DNA of 28,302 nucleotides from a virus (IMGVR_UViG_3300024254_000024:1-28302), one strand, 5' to 3'. Shown: positions 11,683 through 28,302, counted from the first letter of the stretch. Translations and numbers: made by a program. Notes: a model not told the origin generated them from the letters alone.

Positions 11683-12521
11683 GTATCGTTCCTCTTGAGA
11701 CAGCCTGCAGATACATCGAATGTATCTCCTGGGGCAGGCGGATCTGTTAGGGGGTAAGTAAGATAGAACTTGGTAGCGTCGTTGCCTCCGACAATAAACT
11801 GTTCATTGGTTAGGGCTCCGGAGGTGAATAGTAGTCGACCCTGCATGTAGTATGGAGCTGAGTCCGCTCCAACATTAGGTGATACTCCTCCGACAGGTGT
11901 AACAGTAGAACCGTCAGCAGTATCGACAGTGAAAGAGTTAGTAAAAGAAGTACGGTTGACTGTGCATGTGTGGGCATCGTATAGGGTCCATCCGCACATG
12001 GGCTGGAAGGTATTGCGAGGCATTTCAATGTCGAGCAGCTTCAGTGGTGATTTAACTTTAAGCTCGCATGTCGAACTCCCCAATTTGGTAATCTGCGAGA
12101 CCAGACCTGAGAATAGAACTACAACGGCTTGGGGAGGAGCTCGATAATCTACCCAAGGTCTGCCATCACTGATTGCCCAGTAACCCCTTTGGCGAGTGAG
12201 CTTGGCTCCGTCCAGGAGACCTTGTGCAACTCCCTTGAAGAAGTCGGCACCTGCTAGTAGCGCATCGGGGTAGGCAGAAATCTTGACGTCCTGTTCATCA
12301 ACTGCGAATCCCACAGCCTGCTTAAAACGCATCCCTTCTATTAACAGCTCCTGTGAGGTGTATCGGTTACCTGAGCCTCCTCCACCATACACTATGTCAA
12401 TATCCAAGTTCGTGTAGAAGGCAAAGTTGCCATCGCGGAATTCGAAGTAGAACAATTCGGCAATCAGCATCTGCTGATTCTGTCGTAGGAAGTTAACGAA
12501 GCCTGCTGGTACGATCTTCAT
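11607..12521 (-). CDS. DUF2163/BR0599-like baseplate hub (lambda L-like, Fe-S Cys motif), 304 aa
   Basis: C.W.LYD..C and GC.K...TC..KFNN..NFRGFP signature; start ATG 12521 coupled by TAATG. Confidence 0.9.
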   Translation of the reverse strand: MKIVPAGFVNFLRQNQQMLIAELFYFEFRDGNFAFYTNLDIDIVYGGGGSGNRYTSQELLIEGMRFKQAVGFAVDEQDVKISAYPDALLAGADFFKGVAQGLLDGAKLTRQRGYWAISDGRPWVDYRAPPQAVVVLFSGLVSQITKLGSSTCELKVKSPLKLLDIEMPRNTFQPMCGWTLYDAHTCTVNRTSFTNSFTVDTADGSTVTPVGGVSPNVGADSAPYYMQGRLLFTSGALTNEQFIVGGNDATKFYLTYPLTDPPAPGDTFDVSAGCLKRNDTCQLKFNNLQNFRGFPKVPPIHISA

Positions 12522-14230
12522 TAGAAGTACTTCCACACCACAGGGTTGACGAAACCCATTCGCATGCACTGTCCTACAGCTGTCAGACCATCATCTGATA
12601 TGCCGTATACTAGAGCGTCGTCTGTTGCAGTAGAGTCGCTGAACAGTGGTAGCTGCACGGGCACTCCTGACTGCCAGATCACCGGAATGTACCGATCGTT
12701 GCCATCAGTGCACTGTCCGCATATACTGAGGTTGTCGAAACTGATTCCGTGCGCTTCAGCGACAAGACCGTCAGACCCATCTATGAACGGTAGGCTAGTA
12801 AGAGTGGTACCTACCCAGTAGCATGCGTGACGAGCACCTCCAGCGTCGACGCGAGATCCGACTATAGTAGTACCATCGGCAGAGATAGCTTCTGCAGATG
12901 ACTGGGTATCCCCAGCAACGATATCTAAGAGGGTCTCTGTGGCGCCTCCTATGGACCACTTAACAGCTCGCTGTACCCCTCCAGATGTATCTAGGCCGCA
13001 GATCGTGTCGTTATCGTCAGCGATCCCAGAGGCAGAAGAAGGTTGGTTGGGAGTTATCTGGGGCAGGAGGTTGTAGGTAGCATCTAGAGCGTTAGTCCAC
13101 CAAGCAGCACGAGGCTGGTTAGCATTAGCTGCGAGCTCGACGAAGCCTGTTCCTATAGATCCGTCATCGCTGATGCTCATGTTAATAGCATCAGAGGTGG
13201 TTATATCACTACCCTGCATGGGGTTCGGGATCTGTGAAGCCCATACGCAGGGGGTGATAGAATTGGTGTCAGGGTCCAAGAACCATCCTGTCCAGTTAGC
13301 TCCATCATCGTCTGCAGCAGTCACTCCCCACACAACGGCTGTGTGGAGACTGGCGTTAATAGGTGCCTGTGTGTTATAGCCTGCTAAGTTTCGGGTGTCC
13401 CAGAATATACCGTTAGCTCTTACGCCTGTAGAGTCATAGCCTATCCCAACTGCGTAGATCCCGTTCCTGCTGACAACTCTGCCATTGACGAAGTTCTGCA
13501 GGTAGGCAAAGGTATGAGCAGCTGGCATATTCAGCTCGTAGATACGCCAGTGAGGACCTGGTGGAGGTGCGGGCGGTCCCTGAGCTCCTCTGAATCCGAG
13601 ATTTACTGTCCTGAACTTAAGGATAGTCATGTGCCAATCCTTGAAGAACTCATCAAAGTCCGGGACGTCTTCAAGGAACCGACACAGGTACTGGAACGTG
13701 AAGTCTGCCTGGATAACATCCCCGTTAGGTACTGCATTGTCAAAGACTAGACTACGACCGTCCGAGGCCAGTGTGAATCCTGTTGTAGGGGTACCGTTGA
13801 CTCTAACAACCAGTCCTGATGATAGAGCCCTACCGACAGGTTCTTCTATCAGCTTGGTACCTGTACCCCAGTCTCTTATGATAGGGAAGGTAGTGTCCGT
13901 ACCGTTACCTACTCCGATCCCTTGATTCGTGCGCGTACAGTCCGAAGGATCCTGGTAGTAGAACCTACCGCCCTGTCCCTGAGACATCAGGAAGACTAGG
14001 AGGATCTGTTCATAGGCTAGACGGGCTCGGTGTTGGTAGTCCGTGTTCAGAACCTGGTTCTCAGTTTCGGAAGGGAGCGAGTGGAACTCGAGCTCGAACT
14101 CCCAAACTGGGAACGCTTGCTGGCCGAAAGAAAGCTCACGCCCGTTGACCGCCTGGAAGATTGCAGTAGCGAACGTCGGCTTCTTACGGACCGAGAACCC
14201 TTCTAGGTTTGCCAGAACTGGATACGTCAT
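12521..14230 (-). CDS. Distal tail protein (DUF2460-like) paralogue 2 with C-terminal HAF-like beta-propeller repeats
   Basis: K.PTF.T.....GRE......P.WEFEL, F.Y.DP.D, GNGT.T.F, CRF N-terminal domain; Pro linker; repeated A..IS.DG..I.G...A..W units. Confidence 0.8.
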   Translation of the reverse strand: MTYPVLANLEGFSVRKKPTFATAIFQAVNGRELSFGQQAFPVWEFELEFHSLPSETENQVLNTDYQHRARLAYEQILLVFLMSQGQGGRFYYQDPSDCTRTNQGIGVGNGTDTTFPIIRDWGTGTKLIEEPVGRALSSGLVVRVNGTPTTGFTLASDGRSLVFDNAVPNGDVIQADFTFQYLCRFLEDVPDFDEFFKDWHMTILKFRTVNLGFRGAQGPPAPPPGPHWRIYELNMPAAHTFAYLQNFVNGRVVSRNGIYAVGIGYDSTGVRANGIFWDTRNLAGYNTQAPINASLHTAVVWGVTAADDDGANWTGWFLDPDTNSITPCVWASQIPNPMQGSDITTSDAINMSISDDGSIGTGFVELAANANQPRAAWWTNALDATYNLLPQITPNQPSSASGIADDNDTICGLDTSGGVQRAVKWSIGGATETLLDIVAGDTQSSAEAISADGTTIVGSRVDAGGARHACYWVGTTLTSLPFIDGSDGLVAEAHGISFDNLSICGQCTDGNDRYIPVIWQSGVPVQLPLFSDSTATDDALVYGISDDGLTAVGQCMRMGFVNPVVWKYF

Positions 14231-16905
14231 GGAGCAGGTCCGTTTACGTACCCGAGAAATCCTACATTGCCTTCATTGTCTATTATAAGATCTCCTGTGC
14301 CTGCATGGTTGTCAGAGAAGCGGCTCCCACTCACCAACACGTACGATCCACCCTGCCCAAAGTTGGAACCAGTCCCGTGATTGGTTCCCCAAGCCGAAGC
14401 AGGGTCTCCCGGATCTAGATGCAAGAATACAACGGGCGCAGTACCCGACGGGAGAGCTCCTGTCGGTCCTAGATCGACAGGATTCCCACTGCCATCTACA
14501 AACTTATCAACAACATTGAAATACTGTCCTGGACCAAACCAGAACTCGCCGATGTAGCCACGTAGGTTCAGGAATAAGGCGAAGTCAGCACCTTGATCCC
14601 AAGCTATAGCTATCTCACCTGCCGAGTCGCCAGTCGAAGTGACCGTCGCAAGTGTGTTACCGTAGTACACAATAACGTCCCGCGCACCACCTGTGAAGTC
14701 ACATTGCATCCGAATGTTGCCACCACGGCCTACATCATACTCAAACTGAAACTGCGTAAACGGACTTCCGGTGCTGGCTATGAAGCATACACACACTGGC
14801 GGGTCAGAATTTGTGTTCAGATCAATCTCAACATACCCATCAGGGTACAAGAAGGCTCCGCGAGTATTCCGATCAATCCAGAACGACAATACAAACTTGG
14901 TCGTAGTACCGATAAGACCTCCAGTCTGCGACAGCCCATATCCCAGAGGATCAACAAACACTACATTGGGATCAGGCACGGGTGAATGGTGCTGATTGAG
15001 CCCCATATAGATTGTTGGAGCAACGCCTGTAGGTATCTCTCCCTGAACTCCGAGGTCAACAGCCTTTCCAGCAACGTCGTGGAACTTCAGACGGTTAGAC
15101 GTGTCTGAGAAGTCGATATAGTCGGTCGTGTTAAACCAGAACTCAGCTACCTCACCCGCATAGCCACATCCAGACACTCCACCGTTACCAAATACCTTCC
15201 ACGCTACATTGTAGAAGGTATCAGGCAGTCCTACTCCGTAGTCGATGTTGAATCCTGCAGTGTAGTCAGCACGAGTCAGAACTGTAACAGGTGAGTCGTT
15301 GAAATACAGATCGACCTTCTTAGCCCCTGCTGCCTGCTGCATGTCCCATGAACACAACACATTGACCCATTCGTCGGGAGGCAACGCTGTCGTAGTGATG
15401 AGACTGACAAAGTTGGTCTCTCCTGTATTAGCCAGGAATACAGAGAAAGCGTTTGCTATGAAACACCTGACAATGTTCCCAAGAGGCACGTAAGCAGGTA
15501 GTCCGCTCGTATCCAAGTCAACGGTTATAGTATTGGTACTGTGTCCGAGTACTAGAACGCCCCCAGAACCTGAGCCGAGCCCCGACCATCCTCCGCCTTG
15601 AGTAATCGTCGAGAGTCTGACGCGAGTGTATCCTCCGCTAGAGTCGATCCCATGAGCAGAGCTGAACGTTATTACTGCAGGGTTTGCAGACGTAATATTC
15701 GAGATGAATAATACGTCAATGTGGGCTCCGGTGTTAAGTGAGGGGTTGTAAGTTCCTAAGGCTGATGTATTCCAAGCTACCGTTATCGTGTTGACTCCGG
15801 TAGACACTACACTGACGATAATCTGATGAGGACTTGCAGGAACGAACTGGTTGACGTTGGCAATGTAGATCTGCGACCCAACAAGAATCTGCGTCAGGTC
15901 ACCCACAATAGTGATGACCGCATTGGCAGCATTACTGATATTCGTAATACGAAAGTTAAGGTTTGAGCAGAACGACGGTTGGAAATACATCGTGTCTGAA
16001 TTGGGGGCGCCTATGGGTCCTGAGAACGATCCGTACAACGCTAGGAAGTCGTCGGTCGCCTGAACCTTTGCCCAGAACGATAGTGTACCCTTGCCTCCCG
16101 GACTCATCGGAGGGAAACGCCAGAACTCTACATTGCCGTCGGCTGTAGCCCCTTTTGCAAACCAACTTACTGGAGGAGGTACTATAGGAGGTGCACCGAA
16201 CGGGGCCCAGCTAGGTAGGGGAGGAGTATCTGACGTCTCCTGGATAACTGACCTAAACTTTAACGAGGCAGTCCACCAATTCTTGACGAACTGTTCGAAC
16301 TCTTGCTCGTCTACGATGAACCTGCACTTGTAGTAATAGTACATGTCCACAGAGATGACAGACCCTGCAGGAGGAGCGTTATCGAACACTAGCTCCGTAC
16401 CATCCAGGGAAGTGCTCCACCCCGAAGTCTGCTCTACCCCGTCGAAGTATACTTTGAAGGTGTGCGAGCGATTAACTGCCCCGACAGGTTCGGTGCAGAA
16501 CATCGTTGCAGTGTCATCGTTCGGGTACTTGATTGTGCGTAGCAAGAGGTAGACGGTTGTACTGCCGTCTGTCTCCCCGATTACCTGCCCAGCTCTGGAG
16601 CAGTCTGTCAAGTCCTCGAACAAGAACCAGCCGTACTGCCCGTTGCAGCTGATGAAGATCTGAGACAGCGCTTCGAACTGCGTGAACCCTAACTGGTTGA
16701 GGTCGAGGGAGGAATTCTGGGTCTGGTCGCGTAGTGTCTCGTACTTGAGCTCAAACTCCCACAAGGGCAGAGTCTGCTGTGCAGAAGTAACTTCCCTCCC
16801 AGACTTGATGTTGCTGATGACAGTCGAGAATGTGGGCTTGCGATGGACGCTGAACCCGTACAGGTACGGCAGTACTGAAAGGTCAGTAGTGGGCAGGCCA
16901 GTCAT
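14227..16905 (-). CDS. Distal tail protein (DUF2460-like) paralogue 1 with LamG/ConA-like and FCCH-like modules
   Basis: Same DUF2460-type N-terminus; Pro linker; TLSFW, WVNVLCSWD, LYFND, AEFWF LamG-like strands; two I(T/S)NI(S/T).AN.AVIT-like modules. Confidence 0.8.
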   Translation of the reverse strand: MTGLPTTDLSVLPYLYGFSVHRKPTFSTVISNIKSGREVTSAQQTLPLWEFELKYETLRDQTQNSSLDLNQLGFTQFEALSQIFISCNGQYGWFLFEDLTDCSRAGQVIGETDGSTTVYLLLRTIKYPNDDTATMFCTEPVGAVNRSHTFKVYFDGVEQTSGWSTSLDGTELVFDNAPPAGSVISVDMYYYYKCRFIVDEQEFEQFVKNWWTASLKFRSVIQETSDTPPLPSWAPFGAPPIVPPPVSWFAKGATADGNVEFWRFPPMSPGGKGTLSFWAKVQATDDFLALYGSFSGPIGAPNSDTMYFQPSFCSNLNFRITNISNAANAVITIVGDLTQILVGSQIYIANVNQFVPASPHQIIVSVVSTGVNTITVAWNTSALGTYNPSLNTGAHIDVLFISNITSANPAVITFSSAHGIDSSGGYTRVRLSTITQGGGWSGLGSGSGGVLVLGHSTNTITVDLDTSGLPAYVPLGNIVRCFIANAFSVFLANTGETNFVSLITTTALPPDEWVNVLCSWDMQQAAGAKKVDLYFNDSPVTVLTRADYTAGFNIDYGVGLPDTFYNVAWKVFGNGGVSGCGYAGEVAEFWFNTTDYIDFSDTSNRLKFHDVAGKAVDLGVQGEIPTGVAPTIYMGLNQHHSPVPDPNVVFVDPLGYGLSQTGGLIGTTTKFVLSFWIDRNTRGAFLYPDGYVEIDLNTNSDPPVCVCFIASTGSPFTQFQFEYDVGRGGNIRMQCDFTGGARDVIVYYGNTLATVTSTGDSAGEIAIAWDQGADFALFLNLRGYIGEFWFGPGQYFNVVDKFVDGSGNPVDLGPTGALPSGTAPVVFLHLDPGDPASAWGTNHGTGSNFGQGGSYVLVSGSRFSDNHAGTGDLIIDNEGNVGFLGYVNGPAP

Positions 16906-24952: not shown

Positions 24953-25882
24953 TCATAGTGGTAGGATGGACCTGAACCTGTCTAGGACGGGCTTGACATA
25001 TTTCGGCCACTCGTCGTCCATGTATCTCGTAGTGACTTGCTGGTTCATCGACCGAGACACTTCTCCGATGTGACCTCTGTATAGCCAGCGCTCGCAAGTG
25101 CACTCGATACAAACCTGCTCTAGAGCGAACGGTATGAAACCGTACGAGATGAGAACCTCTACTCCTTGGTCTCCGCCAGGACCTGTAAAGAATTCGTACC
25201 CTCCCGAGCCGGTTAATGGTTGCCCTCGGTCGGCTACGATGATACGGTACTGGCCTGCAGTTGTCGGAGCTGTGGTGACTTTGGTAAGAGGAGTCTTGTC
25301 TGCGTCGTTATAGGTAACCTTGACGTCTGATCCCCAAATCCCCTGAGGCCCGTCAACTTCCACTTGGGACGTTGTTGAGACCCCGGATGCCTCTGGGATT
25401 GTGTGAAGCTCATCGTCAACTCTGTAGCCTGCGGTATAGTCAATCTGAATGTTGAGGTTGCCTCTCCAGAAGCGACTACCTACTAGGTCGATATGCTGCG
25501 GACCTCCTGGAGGAACGCCGTCCCAAGTCTCATACCTGTAGCCGAACGTGGGCCCTGAGGTAGATCCCTGAGTGGGTCCTGTAGGAGCTGGTGGAATTGC
25601 TTGGATAGCCTGGCTACCCACAACCACTCGCTCAACTGAGAGTACTGGCCAGTTTCTCATGAACTGCAGTGGACCTCCGTTGCCGTCGTACTGATCAGAG
25701 TACGACTTAGGGAGGATCCAAGGACGCTCCAACTCAGCAAGGATCGCACCTGACCAGCGACTGATCAAGCGAGACAGGGTAGCGTCAATATCTGTTTGGG
25801 CATTACTATCCGGTGAGGTATAGTTCTGCGTGACCAACCAGGATTTGACGTTCTTCAGAGTCGTTAGGTCGCCTTCTCTCAT
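24953..25882 (-). CDS. Head-tail adaptor (HK97 gp6 / SPP1 gp15-like) with inserted beta domain
   Basis: DLTTL..VK.WL, D..L..LI, P...V..V, NI.I.YTAGY, P..LEQ..IE, V..VL.RFR motifs. Confidence 0.85.
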   Translation of the reverse strand: MREGDLTTLKNVKSWLVTQNYTSPDSNAQTDIDATLSRLISRWSGAILAELERPWILPKSYSDQYDGNGGPLQFMRNWPVLSVERVVVGSQAIQAIPPAPTGPTQGSTSGPTFGYRYETWDGVPPGGPQHIDLVGSRFWRGNLNIQIDYTAGYRVDDELHTIPEASGVSTTSQVEVDGPQGIWGSDVKVTYNDADKTPLTKVTTAPTTAGQYRIIVADRGQPLTGSGGYEFFTGPGGDQGVEVLISYGFIPFALEQVCIECTCERWLYRGHIGEVSRSMNQQVTTRYMDDEWPKYVKPVLDRFRSILPL

Positions 25883-25887
25883 TTTGG

Positions 25888-26088
25888 TCAGGTGGCTTGA
25901 GTGTGGGGCATTAATGAGACAATACAGAAAGTAACGATGGCAACTAGTATGGATACAAGAGCGATCACCATGATAGCAACGACGACAGGAGAACCGTCTC
26001 CGGAACTCCTGCCCTCTTTGTCGTGGTGGGCTCCTCCGAGGTCATGATCTTCATCGTCTCCGAAGGGATCATGATCTGGAGGAGCCAA
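25888..26088 (-). CDS. Possible small membrane peptide (TTG 26088, 66 aa; or ATG 25971, 27 aa)
   Basis: Hydrophobic run VVVAIMVIALVSILVAIVTFCIVSLM; weak SD; the 5' part overlaps RNA hairpins. Confidence 0.4.
   Translation of the reverse strand: MAPPDHDPFGDDEDHDLGGAHHDKEGRSSGDGSPVVVAIMVIALVSILVAIVTFCIVSLMPHTQAT
25986..26074 (-). promoter_or_regulatory. Two CG-GAGA-CG tetraloop hairpins 3' of the capsid gene
   Basis: 26042-26074: UCAUGAUC-CCU-UCG-GAGA-CGA-UGAA-GAUCAUGA. 25986-26011: CAGGAG-UU-CCG-GAGA-CGG-UU-CUCCUG. Confidence 0.7.
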
Positions 26089-26110
26089 TTCTGCTCGTCT
26101 AGGCGCCGTG

Positions 26111-27658
26111 CTACGCGTTCGGGATGTTCGTAATGACGAACATCGCGAAGGGTGCGTAGATCGCGAGCACCTCTTCAGCGTACACACCGTACTCACGCTG
26201 GCGAGTGACCAACGGCCAATCGATACGGTAGTAGTCACGACGGACCTTCATTTCAGCCACGTTCGGGACCTCGTTCGACTGGTACCACGGAGGCAGACGC
26301 TCGCACCACCCGAGGATCGTGCCCGGCGGGATGTCGGGATGGATCTTGACGGGCAGTTTGTAGCCGCCTTCGTGGGAGAACGGGTTGTAGTAGTAGTCGA
26401 TCACGCCACCAGCAGTGATCGCGTACGGCCCACCCGGCGTTGAATTGGCGTCGTACCGCAGCAGAGGACCTGAGGTGTTTGACAGGACCTTGTCCGAGAT
26501 GAGACGCTGTTCACGCGAGTTGACGTACAGCACTGACGGGCCCAGGTTGAACTGGTCCCACATGCTCTCCAGCACCGTGTCGATCTCGACGATGGAGCCG
26601 CGCCCGGAAGCGGTCAAGGCGGACGGGACGCCATTCGCACCCTGAGTCATGTAGGTGACGATTGCGTTGTTGTCCGGGTTGAACGCGTACGAGAACAGAC
26701 CGTCGTAGGCGAGCTCGGGATTGGTCGAGTGATCGCCAGAGACCGCAGTCGCCGCCTGAGTCCCTGTGAGCAGTGGAACGGTCCAGGAGCCGTTGGCCTG
26801 GGTCGTGATCTGCTGCAGGATCTCGTTGCCTGCTGTGCCGATGAACCACGCATAAGCCAGCGCACCCGGGACCGGAGTGGTCCAGTAGTACAAGTTCTGG
26901 CCGAGCGTGATCGCCTGGCTGGCTGCCGATGACCGGTTGGACGAGCCACCATTCAGGGTGAAGTTCTTACCGTCGGCGCCCGTGATGACCTTCGTCGTGG
27001 CAACGCCGCCCGTAATGCTGGAGTTCTTCCAGCCTTCGAGCGTCAGAGCTACGACGATGACCGAGTAGGTTGCTGACGGCAGGGTACCTCCGGTGCCTGC
27101 GGCGGCGGTCGACGGCGTATCCGGAGTGCCGAGCTGCAAGGTAGCATTCCCACCGAGGATGCCGATTTCTTCCTTCCGCATCATCTTCTGCAGAAGACGG
27201 AAAGTGACCATCGCATTCTCGTCTTCGAAGCCTTCAGCGGCTGCCTCTGCTTCGAAGGTCAGGTTGTCTTCCTCGCCGAGCGTGACGTAGGTCTTCGCCA
27301 TCGGGATGGACGTATAGTTCATCACGCCTGAACGCTGACCTTCCGGAACCCACCCCATGGCGTCGTATCCGGAGCCGATGAGAGCCCGGATGGTCTTCCA
27401 GTGTGCTGCGTCGCCCGGATGCTGCGTACCGGCGCCTCGCGGGCCAACACGCGGGATCGAGTTCCGAAGCGGGGTGATCGTCGGGTAAATGTTCTTCGCC
27501 GGGATTTCCAGGTTGTACCAGGTAAGGCCCGTCGCGATCGTAACGCCCTTCTGCAGGCCTCCACCTCGCAGAAGTTCACCATCAAGGGGCTGACCGAGTG
27601 ACCCCTTCATCATGTCGATGGTATCGCGGGAGATTTCCGCGGTGATTGGGCTAGGCAT
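26111..27658 (-). CDS. Major capsid protein (HK97 fold inferred) with T/G/A-rich insertion domain, 515 aa
   Basis: GL..Y.LE.PAK.IYP..TPLRN.IPRV, G.V.EG.R, EE..ILGGN, IHP..PPGTI, RDYY...WP...R..EYGVY..EVL..YAP. ATG 27658 with GAGGA SD; biased codons; upstream of the adaptor. Confidence 0.88.
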   Translation of the reverse strand: MPSPITAEISRDTIDMMKGSLGQPLDGELLRGGGLQKGVTIATGLTWYNLEIPAKNIYPTITPLRNSIPRVGPRGAGTQHPGDAAHWKTIRALIGSGYDAMGWVPEGQRSGVMNYTSIPMAKTYVTLGEEDNLTFEAEAAAEGFEDENAMVTFRLLQKMMRKEEIGILGGNATLQLGTPDTPSTAAAGTGGTLPSATYSVIVVALTLEGWKNSSITGGVATTKVITGADGKNFTLNGGSSNRSSAASQAITLGQNLYYWTTPVPGALAYAWFIGTAGNEILQQITTQANGSWTVPLLTGTQAATAVSGDHSTNPELAYDGLFSYAFNPDNNAIVTYMTQGANGVPSALTASGRGSIVEIDTVLESMWDQFNLGPSVLYVNSREQRLISDKVLSNTSGPLLRYDANSTPGGPYAITAGGVIDYYYNPFSHEGGYKLPVKIHPDIPPGTILGWCERLPPWYQSNEVPNVAEMKVRRDYYRIDWPLVTRQREYGVYAEEVLAIYAPFAMFVITNIPNA

Positions 27659-27691
27659 GTTCGTGGTTCCTCGCCCCCCGTCCAAGGGTGG

Positions 27692-27712
27692 CTAGCTGGT
27701 GTTGTCGGGCAT
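27692..27712 (-). other. 6-codon leader ORF (MPDNTS*) with AAGGAGG SD, in frame with the capsid gene
   Basis: AAGGAGG at 27725-27719, 6-nt spacer, ATG 27712, TAG 27694-27692; 54 nt upstream of the capsid ATG. Confidence 0.55.
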
Positions 27713-27724
27713 GCAAGACCTCCT

Positions 27725-27858
27725 TTAGGTGGGTCATCGTCTCCGAGCCATACCTAAGTAGGGTTGAACCTAGACAGTCTCTTCAGGAGATGAGGTCGTC
27801 CCCGAGCTCATCTGCATCTGAGTACTGCCGCGAGTACCTCCGACGTCTCCGTCGGAGG
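27725..27858 (-). promoter_or_regulatory. Three CG-GRGA-CG tetraloop hairpins in the capsid 5' leader
   Basis: 27837-27858: CCUCCGACG-GAGA-CGUCGGAGG. 27788-27813: AGAUGAG-C-UCG-GGGA-CGA-C-CUCAUCU. 27725-27757: UUAGGU-AUGGC-UCG-GAGA-CGA-UGACCC-ACCUAA. Confidence 0.7.
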
Positions 27859-27879: not shown

Positions 27880-28302
27880 TCAGTGGCGCCCGTAGTACCT
27901 CGTCATGCTCCCGGTCTCGCCCATCTTGAGAGTCTCGCCTTGACCCTCCTTGTCAGCGATGGCGACCTGAGCAGTTCCGGTTGCAGGAGCCTTCGTCGGG
28001 AACCTCGTGAGAGTTCCTGGCTGACTATGCTCTGAGATGATCCCTGGAGTCTTGGTCTGCTCAGAGACCCGACCTCCCGTAGGTGTGATAACGGGGTCCA
28101 GCTGGTGTGTCCCTGGATAGAACCGGAGGTCGCTGTATTGACCGACCATCGCCTGCGGGAGCGGCCAAGTGAACTCTCCACGGCCTTCACCGTGGCAGAC
28201 ACCTTGCACCCAATAACCTTCGGCGCCGTCGGCAAACACGAGACCGTTCACGTCCGAGTTCTCGGTGGGATTGTCACCCCAGACCCTCAGGATCAGCATT
28301 GG
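27880..28302 (-). CDS. Hypothetical head-module protein, probably 5'-truncated
   Basis: Frame is open to the window edge; same strand as, and upstream of, the capsid gene; no recognised motif. Confidence 0.55.
   Translation of the reverse strand, partial: PMLILRVWGDNPTENSDVNGLVFADGAEGYWVQGVCHGEGRGEFTWPLPQAMVGQYSDLRFYPGTHQLDPVITPTGGRVSEQTKTPGIISEHSQPGTLTRFPTKAPATGTAQVAIADKEGQGETLKMGETGSMTRYYGRH

Follow-up and report, generated by a model that had tools for sequence, protein, structure and literature searches.

Repeated GRGA tetraloop hairpins beside a phage capsid gene and a candidate partner module in the protease-scaffold

The capsid gene and the hairpins around it

The window analysed here is a viral contig of 28,302 nt, which is all of this phage's genome that was covered. 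On its minus strand, a 221-aa gene with no known function is inserted upstream of the gene for a major capsid protein of 515 aa (26111..27658), separating it from the protease-scaffold gene, which is not part of the window. Of the inserted gene the window contains the 3' part (27880..28302; phrog_19300, E 3e-14; full ORF in L178:672-1337). The head-tail adaptor gene (24953..25882, minus strand; phrog_442, E 4e-9) follows downstream of the 3' hairpins described below. According to tblastn, AlphaFold2 and Foldseek the capsid protein has the HK97 fold with a beta-rich insertion. Its length is that of an identical database protein (P0001), tblastn led to the annotated major head protein of phage MMB025 and the annotated capsid of phage Mufasa8, and the top Foldseek matches of the AlphaFold2 model (pTM 0.77) are capsid shells, e.g. 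those of SPO1, SU10 and HK97; the Atlas lead was SU10_MCP (15% of members). The gene has neither a Pfam match nor a PDB sequence match and falls into phrog_13692, a family of unknown function. It encodes an HK97-fold major capsid protein placed after portal and protease, and the gene order in relatives is portal, XkdF-like protease-scaffold (by a weak Pfam match below the cut-off), capsid, adaptor. The tail families DUF2460 and Rcc01698 were also found; these GTA-like families, and the presence of Brevundimonas phages among the relatives, suggest that the host is an alphaproteobacterium. At 12521-16905 lie two tandem genes of the tail region, of 569 and 892 aa, each of which begins with a phrog_2913 domain.

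An earlier note, made from the sequence alone, had described five related hairpins around the capsid gene. All five were recovered as N-CG-GRGA-CG-N' on the minus strand, which is the mRNA strand, and the plus strand of the 28,302-nt window contains none. Hairpin 1 (27837..27858) has the core A-CG-GAGA-CG-U at 27843-27852 on a perfect 9-bp stem, and hairpin 2 (27788..27813) the core U-CG-GGGA-CG-A at 27796-27805 above a C-C mismatch, each with an apex pair probability of 0.99; this probability is 0.84 for hairpin 3 (27725..27757; core U-CG-GAGA-CG-A at 27737-27746). On the 3' side of the gene, hairpin 4 carries U-CG-GAGA-CG-A at 26054-26063 on a long lower stem, and hairpin 5 (25986..26011) carries C-CG-GAGA-CG-G at 25994-26003 above a UU/UU loop, with no U tract after the stem. 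Hairpin 4 had been placed at 26042-26074; it is present there but extends further, to about 26029-26086. Folding predicted the GRGA apex for all five stretches (-9.3 to -17.4 kcal/mol), and the 13-mer common to two copies (26051-26063 and 27734-27746) is identical, as had been noticed. The stem break seen 3 bp below the apex exists in hairpin 3, but is predicted there as bulges and not as an internal loop. As a determinant the internal loop has to be given up, since the fourth pair is formed in only 48 of the 83 core copies of relatives and the loop is not conserved. No terminator-like site was found on the minus strand between 25850 and 28302, which argues against an intrinsic-terminator reading.

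Within this contig the motif has no further copy, even with the loop relaxed to GNRA, in agreement with the earlier manual scan. Counted window-wide, the bare 8-mer is not significant (5 copies vs a shuffle mean of 2.44; at least 5 in 10 of 100 shuffles), but its clustering at the capsid flanks is: in these 449 nt, none of 20,000 dinucleotide shuffles held more than two copies, and five copies of an 8-mer degenerate at one position were reached in none of 3,000. The 3' flank folds far more stably than its shuffles (z -4.3); the folding stability of the whole 5' flank is not unusual (z -1.9). That no described family matches the hairpins agrees with a scan of Rfam 15 at the gathering threshold, which gave no match in the window and no family in 17 motif-bearing loci; two chance microRNA matches lay far below the threshold. 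The guanidine-II riboswitch (mini-ykkC) consists of tandem hairpins with ACGR loops; an ACGA-loop alternative could be drawn by eye for hairpin 2 only, and with no Rfam match this assignment was rejected. CsrA/RsmA sites present GGA in a fixed loop register within the consensus ANGGA, and were rejected since the register of GGA differs between the GAGA and GGGA variants. A K-turn reading was likewise rejected, by inspection against the consensus.

The last 5' hairpin adjoins a strong Shine-Dalgarno sequence (SD), as the earlier note had stated, but this SD (27718-27725) serves a six-codon mini-ORF, MPDNTS-stop (27712-27692; both elements within 27692..27725, minus strand), which is in frame with the capsid gene and closed by TAG. 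The capsid gene starts at 27658 with its own, weaker SD. That hairpin 3 controls ribosome binding at the capsid gene is thus not supported, since the strong SD belongs to the mini-ORF and the last upstream copy in relatives ends 17-224 nt before the capsid ATG (44 loci). A strong SD with a mini-ORF right after the last hairpin is also present in L180 (3938-3976; MTSCNTT, seven codons), there out of frame with the capsid gene, and was not seen in L188 or L189; the mini-ORFs of the window and L180 end in similar C/A-rich sequence. Stop-codon readthrough into the capsid gene was rejected because the upstream gene is not in a constant frame with the capsid gene and because the mini-ORF of L180 is in another frame. 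The window, L180 and L188 have additional small genes ahead of the capsid gene.

The motif in related phages

Capsid-based searches gave 169 non-redundant loci, 159 of them with at least 150 nt upstream. A Watson-Crick copy of the motif lies on the sense strand of the capsid flanks in 42 of the 169 (15 and 28 in two sets, with phage Polewnik counted in both), and the 8-mer core in 44. The five hairpins belong to a hitherto undescribed RNA motif family, whose copies recur immediately upstream of the major capsid gene in dozens of relatives, among them two cultured Brevundimonas phages. These are Polewnik and Strzyga, with 41% capsid identity and two copies each between scaffold stop and capsid start; their host is given as Brevundimonas pondensis LVF1 in a passage of PMC10070969. 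In Polewnik (ON529863.1), POLEWNIK_00430 and POLEWNIK_00440, both annotated as hypothetical, are by homology the protease-scaffold and the major capsid gene. In the tree near the window the motif is found in 11 of 79 rows, all inside one clade of 15 rows, the rest of which is a motif-less subclade of three and one member without upstream DNA. Among the Polewnik-like loci 28 of 59 carry it, and with Polewnik excluded the flanks of the other 58 hold 54 matches in 25,099 nt vs 17 in 310,924 nt elsewhere, with 1 antisense. Copies usually stand in pairs from the protease-scaffold stop to the capsid start; one upstream copy was found in 14 loci, two in 26 and three in 4. Bracketing of the capsid gene on both sides, as first described for the window, is not the rule, as 3' copies were found only there and in L188, L189 and L368.

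The covariation of the third pair, first read from the five hairpins, extends to the relatives, in which this pair is Watson-Crick in 79 of 83 core copies (C-G 67, U-A 8, A-U 2, G-C 2) vs a shuffle mean of 57.7 and maximum of 67; in the background it is Watson-Crick in 46 of 143. The loop of the 83 copies is GGGA in 54 and GAGA in 29, the second C-G pair is the same throughout, and breaks in the lower stem are frequent. Of 81 three-pair GRGA hairpins in the flanks of motif-bearing loci, 80 have CG/CG stems, a partly circular count as the loci are defined by the motif; a GCAA and a GGAA loop occur once each. From scaffold stop to capsid start, 55 folded copies are in sense orientation and none in antisense. 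Because related loci are not independent, these conservation counts are descriptive. In six loci of the window's clade the motif begins 0-1 nt past the scaffold stop codon. The spacer after it is A/C-rich (A 0.31, C 0.33; C 0.40 in motif-less spacers), and no conserved bases, boxA-like or other, flank the motif among the 83 core copies. Taken together, the earlier picture of a conserved, covarying, strand-specific and sequence-strict capsid-flanking hairpin stands, but not ribosome-binding-site control, the internal loop or a general two-sided bracket. The element is best read as a recognition site.

Some neighbouring sequences deserve mention in their own right. Just past the scaffold stop of L204, L212, L218, L228, L238 and L385, which belong to a motif-less subclade, lies another conserved element, CCGGGACGCCTAACCGG, one base off the motif core, which may be a related or a replacement element. 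In the subclade that lost the motif (L013, L191, L193), CCGGAGRGCGGCTCRCCGG lies 3' of the capsid stop and the protease-scaffold module described below is degenerate; L191 and L193 also have a CCC-GTAA-GGG hairpin at the scaffold end. The capsid gene of L189 (5992-7542) has one in-frame stop, at codon 35, which may be an error of assembly.

In complete or near-complete genomes of relatives (G001, G003, G004, G006), folded Watson-Crick copies cluster at the head genes. Folded copies make up 5 of 11 core matches in G001, all at the capsid, 1 of 5 in G003, 3 of 7 in G004, two of these away from the capsid, and 0 of 3 in G006, which belongs to the motif-less subclade. Other intergenic GNRA hairpins of the same genomes vary in loop, closing pair and stem. 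A gene-blind scan of viral contigs for two CCGGRGACGG copies gave at least 121 loci, with both copies folded in at least 30. Of these 30 folded pairs, 28 are at this head module (26 with the capsid downstream, one 3' pair after the capsid, one after the protease at a contig end) and two are unrelated coding matches; among the other loci, two have a capsid gene with single or weaker folding, one lies unfolded after the protease, and the rest have neither gene. A triple-copy scan of viral contigs gave 124 loci, mainly coding or tandem repeats, and no new family. Beyond the zone that was used to define the motif classes, the protease and capsid coding regions contain 15 folded copies in 130,240 nt of motif-bearing loci and none in 243,249 nt of the others, in codon frames 0 and 1. 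Within coding sequence, copies occur in the last third of the scaffold region and inside the capsid gene. One motif-bearing (L254) and one motif-less locus (L213) have a folded copy in the 300 nt upstream of the protease start. Lone intergenic copies off the capsid and upstream of late genes are those at G004:C1:68824 (minus strand) and, 33 nt before the protease start, in L254; at G003:C1:33392-33424 the motif and an antisense copy pair into a longer intergenic stem that hides the apex.

Polewnik and the window's clade have head and tail proteins in common, with only distant polymerase and helicase matches, while StAshley, a phage of Polewnik's host, has the replication genes of the clade, a different capsid and no Watson-Crick copy. 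The motif therefore follows the head module, and a link to the replication module or the host was rejected because StAshley lacks the motif. The 80-kb relative G001 (L262-L265) also encodes 7-deazaguanine synthesis, a UDG-PolA fusion, a class II ribonucleotide reductase, an NYN nuclease and a Fic protein.

A module of the protease-scaffold that accompanies the motif

The earlier note had named no partner for the hairpins, and the comparative data point to a putative binding module in the protease-scaffold. The ORF of this protein was recovered in 135 of the 169 loci, complete in 122, with the window among the 34 missing. In a sliding-window profile test of the protease-scaffolds, one segment tracked the motif: a hitherto undescribed module of ∼30 residues in the middle of the protein, QxWxxxDGxxFxKKADAxxH, which is predicted to form a beta-hairpin followed by a helix. 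The Q, W and K are invariant across 38 aligned rows. With cross-validated profiles built from the other group and a cut-off of 15 bits, 33 of the 36 complete protease-scaffolds of motif-bearing loci scored at least 15 bits, and the remaining three are divergent (7-10 bits) and visibly aligned. Judged by this similarity, motif-bearing loci carry the module wherever the protease-scaffold is complete (36 of 36: 33 clear, 3 divergent). In motif-less loci, 6 of 86 complete protease-scaffolds and 3 partial ones reached 15 bits. The gene-blind loci with a protease gene and long upstream DNA have the module in 20 of 20, many of these contigs being already in the set. One partial protein of a motif-bearing locus, L374, whose N-terminus is missing, has no visible module. 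The KK pair is present in 1 of 10 modules of motif-less loci vs 30 of 39 otherwise.

The association of module and motif has a Fisher p of 3e-20, which ignores kinship; a tree-aware test, underpowered with three independent pairs on well-supported branches, had 1.9 of these pairs going in the same direction on average, none in the opposite one, and p 0.5. On the best tree the motif changes 11 times and the module 12 times, and repeated joint change of the two is suggested. On the capsid tree Polewnik sits on a long branch near the outgroups, so that a single origin with losses is indistinguishable from transfer. Among proteins of at least 530 aa, 35 have motif and module, 6 neither and 5 the module only; 74 of 76 short proteins have neither, and the only short motif-bearing protein (L429) retains the module. 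Motif and module could have been lost jointly as head genes shortened, but protein length is a poorer guide to the motif than the module is.

Six of the fetched genomes have the module, each of them once and in the protease-scaffold only; G006 has none at 12 bits. The protease-scaffold of the window, assigned through L178 and P0241, is probably P0241: over 208 aa this protein is 100% identical to a contig that encodes the same capsid as the window. P0241 has the module at residues 481-510. AlphaFold2 models the module as two short strands and a long helix (pLDDT 92-94, residues 11-30). A convincing Pfam family was not found (YebG, E 0.046, in 1 of 38 rows), two unnamed PHROGs matched 8 of 38 rows each, and there was no match among PDB sequences or Atlas clusters. 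The fold presumably resembles cysteine-less zinc fingers and nucleic-acid-binding arms. Since no convincing Pfam, solved-sequence or Atlas match is available, the argument for RNA binding, which we consider likely, draws on the predicted fold type and the conserved lysines and aromatics.

Two other candidates for a binder were rejected. DUF6582 does not track the motif, as a simple sequence pattern for it was found in 4 of 40 motif-bearing vs 13 of 95 motif-less protease-scaffolds, and most motif-bearing loci show nothing comparable to the inserted 221-aa gene in the interval from scaffold to capsid. In the window's subclade (P0241; L180, L188, L189) the protease-scaffold is very long, at 960-1070 aa, and includes a DUF6582 domain.

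Proposed role and relation to known systems

We propose that the scaffold module binds the hairpins and thus tethers the scaffold to the capsid message, and hold the chances of this reading, which comes from sequence comparison, to be about even. On the late mRNA, N-CG-GRGA-CG-N' is predicted to fold as a 3-bp tetraloop hairpin and probably acts as RNA. The module, its likely binder, would dock on the hairpin and thereby park scaffold and protease on the capsid message, so that the scaffold would be at hand as soon as capsid subunits are made. Occupied hairpins may, in addition, make the capsid part of the message more stable. The likely outcome would be a coupling of capsid production to head assembly. 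Copies never lie on the capsid ribosome-binding site, and some are found in the scaffold end, within the capsid gene or downstream of it, which suits a tether that tolerates varied positions better than it suits a translational operator. The evidence fits tethering and stabilisation alike. A bolder version is that the procapsid nucleates on the capsid mRNA, with the RNA-binding module of the protease-scaffold sitting on repeated GRGA hairpins and nascent subunits captured co-translationally; this we regard as tentative and rather doubtful.

The position of the motif 0-1 nt past the scaffold stop in the six loci of the window's clade would provide a natural processed 5' end, and a host RNA-binding protein or nuclease could cut or protect the transcript where scaffold and capsid meet. 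The capsid segment would then persist longer than the remainder of the late mRNA, and the module would accompany the motif only by shared descent. The four loci with 3' copies and the lack of significance of the tree-corrected association agree with this. However, StAshley grows in Polewnik's host without the motif, a host site should also serve other phage genes, whereas folded tandem pairs in viral contigs are nearly confined to the head module (28 of 30), and copies within the capsid coding region would be harmful if cut; we consider a host factor unlikely. Binding of the hairpins by the capsid protein or portal, as feedback or assembly signal in the manner of the MS2 coat, would account for a motif that travels with the head module, for copies on both sides of the capsid gene and for the capsid and portal that Polewnik and the window's clade have in common. 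It is quite improbable, as the motif does not track capsid similarity: it is missing from most relatives at 53-62% identity and present in Polewnik at 41%.

GGAGAC and GGGGAC are among the favoured tetraloops in energy tables, and with the z of -4.3 for the 3' flank the hairpins might simply be extra-stable structures that shield the mRNA with no partner, like the T4 CUUCGG hairpins. Such shielding is very unlikely to be the whole explanation, because other intergenic GNRA hairpins of the same genomes differ among themselves in loop and closing pair, the second C-G pair is constant even where the lower stem is broken, as it often is, the 5' flank reaches a z of only -1.9, and presence of the motif tracks a protein module. 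A GNRA-type apex just past a stop codon and followed by an A/C-rich spacer has a comparable arrangement in lambda nutR and tR1, and the hairpins could be boxB-like antitermination sites for read-through of terminators around the capsid gene. This is highly improbable, since the loop is a tetraloop and not a pentaloop, a boxA-like flank is not conserved, up to five copies are scattered, C-rich spacers (0.40) occur in motif-less loci too, a crude Arg scan of the fetched genomes gave no obvious common Arg-rich protein, and no NusG or N family was found in 142 proteins. The beta-hairpin-helix type of the module presumably also resembles DNA-binding arms, and G004 has one intergenic copy upstream of late genes, as would suit a late promoter element or operator whose pairing is mere dyad symmetry. 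We give a DNA-level site the same very small chance, because the third pair covaries through four pair types, which a protein that reads double-stranded DNA would not need, and most other late-gene starts have no motif.

Our literature search, with most subscription papers outside its scope, found no description of the N-CG-GRGA-CG-N' motif family or its candidate protein partner. Candidate structured RNAs of phages, five of them upstream of the major capsid family PHA00201, are listed in the portions of PMC10690425 that were covered, under a capsid label different from that of this capsid; the motif strings are not in three of its supplement files, and its other supplements may hold the same RNA. 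The covered passages of PMC5957328 and bioRxiv 10.1101/2020.10.05.325894 contain nothing on scaffold-mRNA binding. It is poorly known how tailed phages keep hundreds of capsid subunits in step with scaffold and protease, all made from one late operon, and at what place procapsids start. For these questions the RNA element is now defined, a putative binding module is at hand, and two of the phages are in culture, so that direct tests are possible.

The scaffold of phage P22 represses its own gene, probably by a post-transcriptional action on the late mRNA. Autoregulation of this scaffold was the subject of work by Wyckoff and Casjens in 1985. The proposed system resembles it in a head scaffold protein that would act on the late mRNA and link synthesis to the state of assembly, but here a discrete candidate module and a defined RNA motif are proposed, and the sites lie at the scaffold end and around the capsid gene and are nearly absent from the scaffold start, where L254 is the one motif-bearing locus with a folded copy within 300 nt upstream. 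The operator hairpin of the MS2/R17 coat protein hides a start codon, and multiple copies are assembly signals. A small sequence-specific hairpin with a virion assembly protein as candidate reader is common to both cases, but MS2/R17 packages RNA whereas these are tailed dsDNA phages, and the copies stay off the SD and start codon of the capsid gene by the distances given above. Lambda boxB is a GNR(N)A pentaloop with boxA adjacent, one site per operon, and is read by the Arg-rich N. A GNRA-type apex beside a stop codon and a small phage peptide as (here candidate) reader are shared with it; in contrast, the present element is by definition a strict four-base loop in 1-5 copies, and the candidate binder is rich in Lys and aromatic residues and lies inside a structural polyprotein. 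The intercistronic CUUCGG hairpins of T4 likewise have one loop and closing pair in common on stems that are otherwise unrelated, but they are used genome-wide for stability, whereas genome, locus and gene-blind scans confine the present element to one module, and it is tied to a protein feature. A defining property of each of these nearest precedents is thus absent here. If the proposal is true, the 10-nt hairpin and its 30-residue binder would be a compact tethering tool and a new peptide-RNA pair of minimal size, of the kind known from boxB and N.
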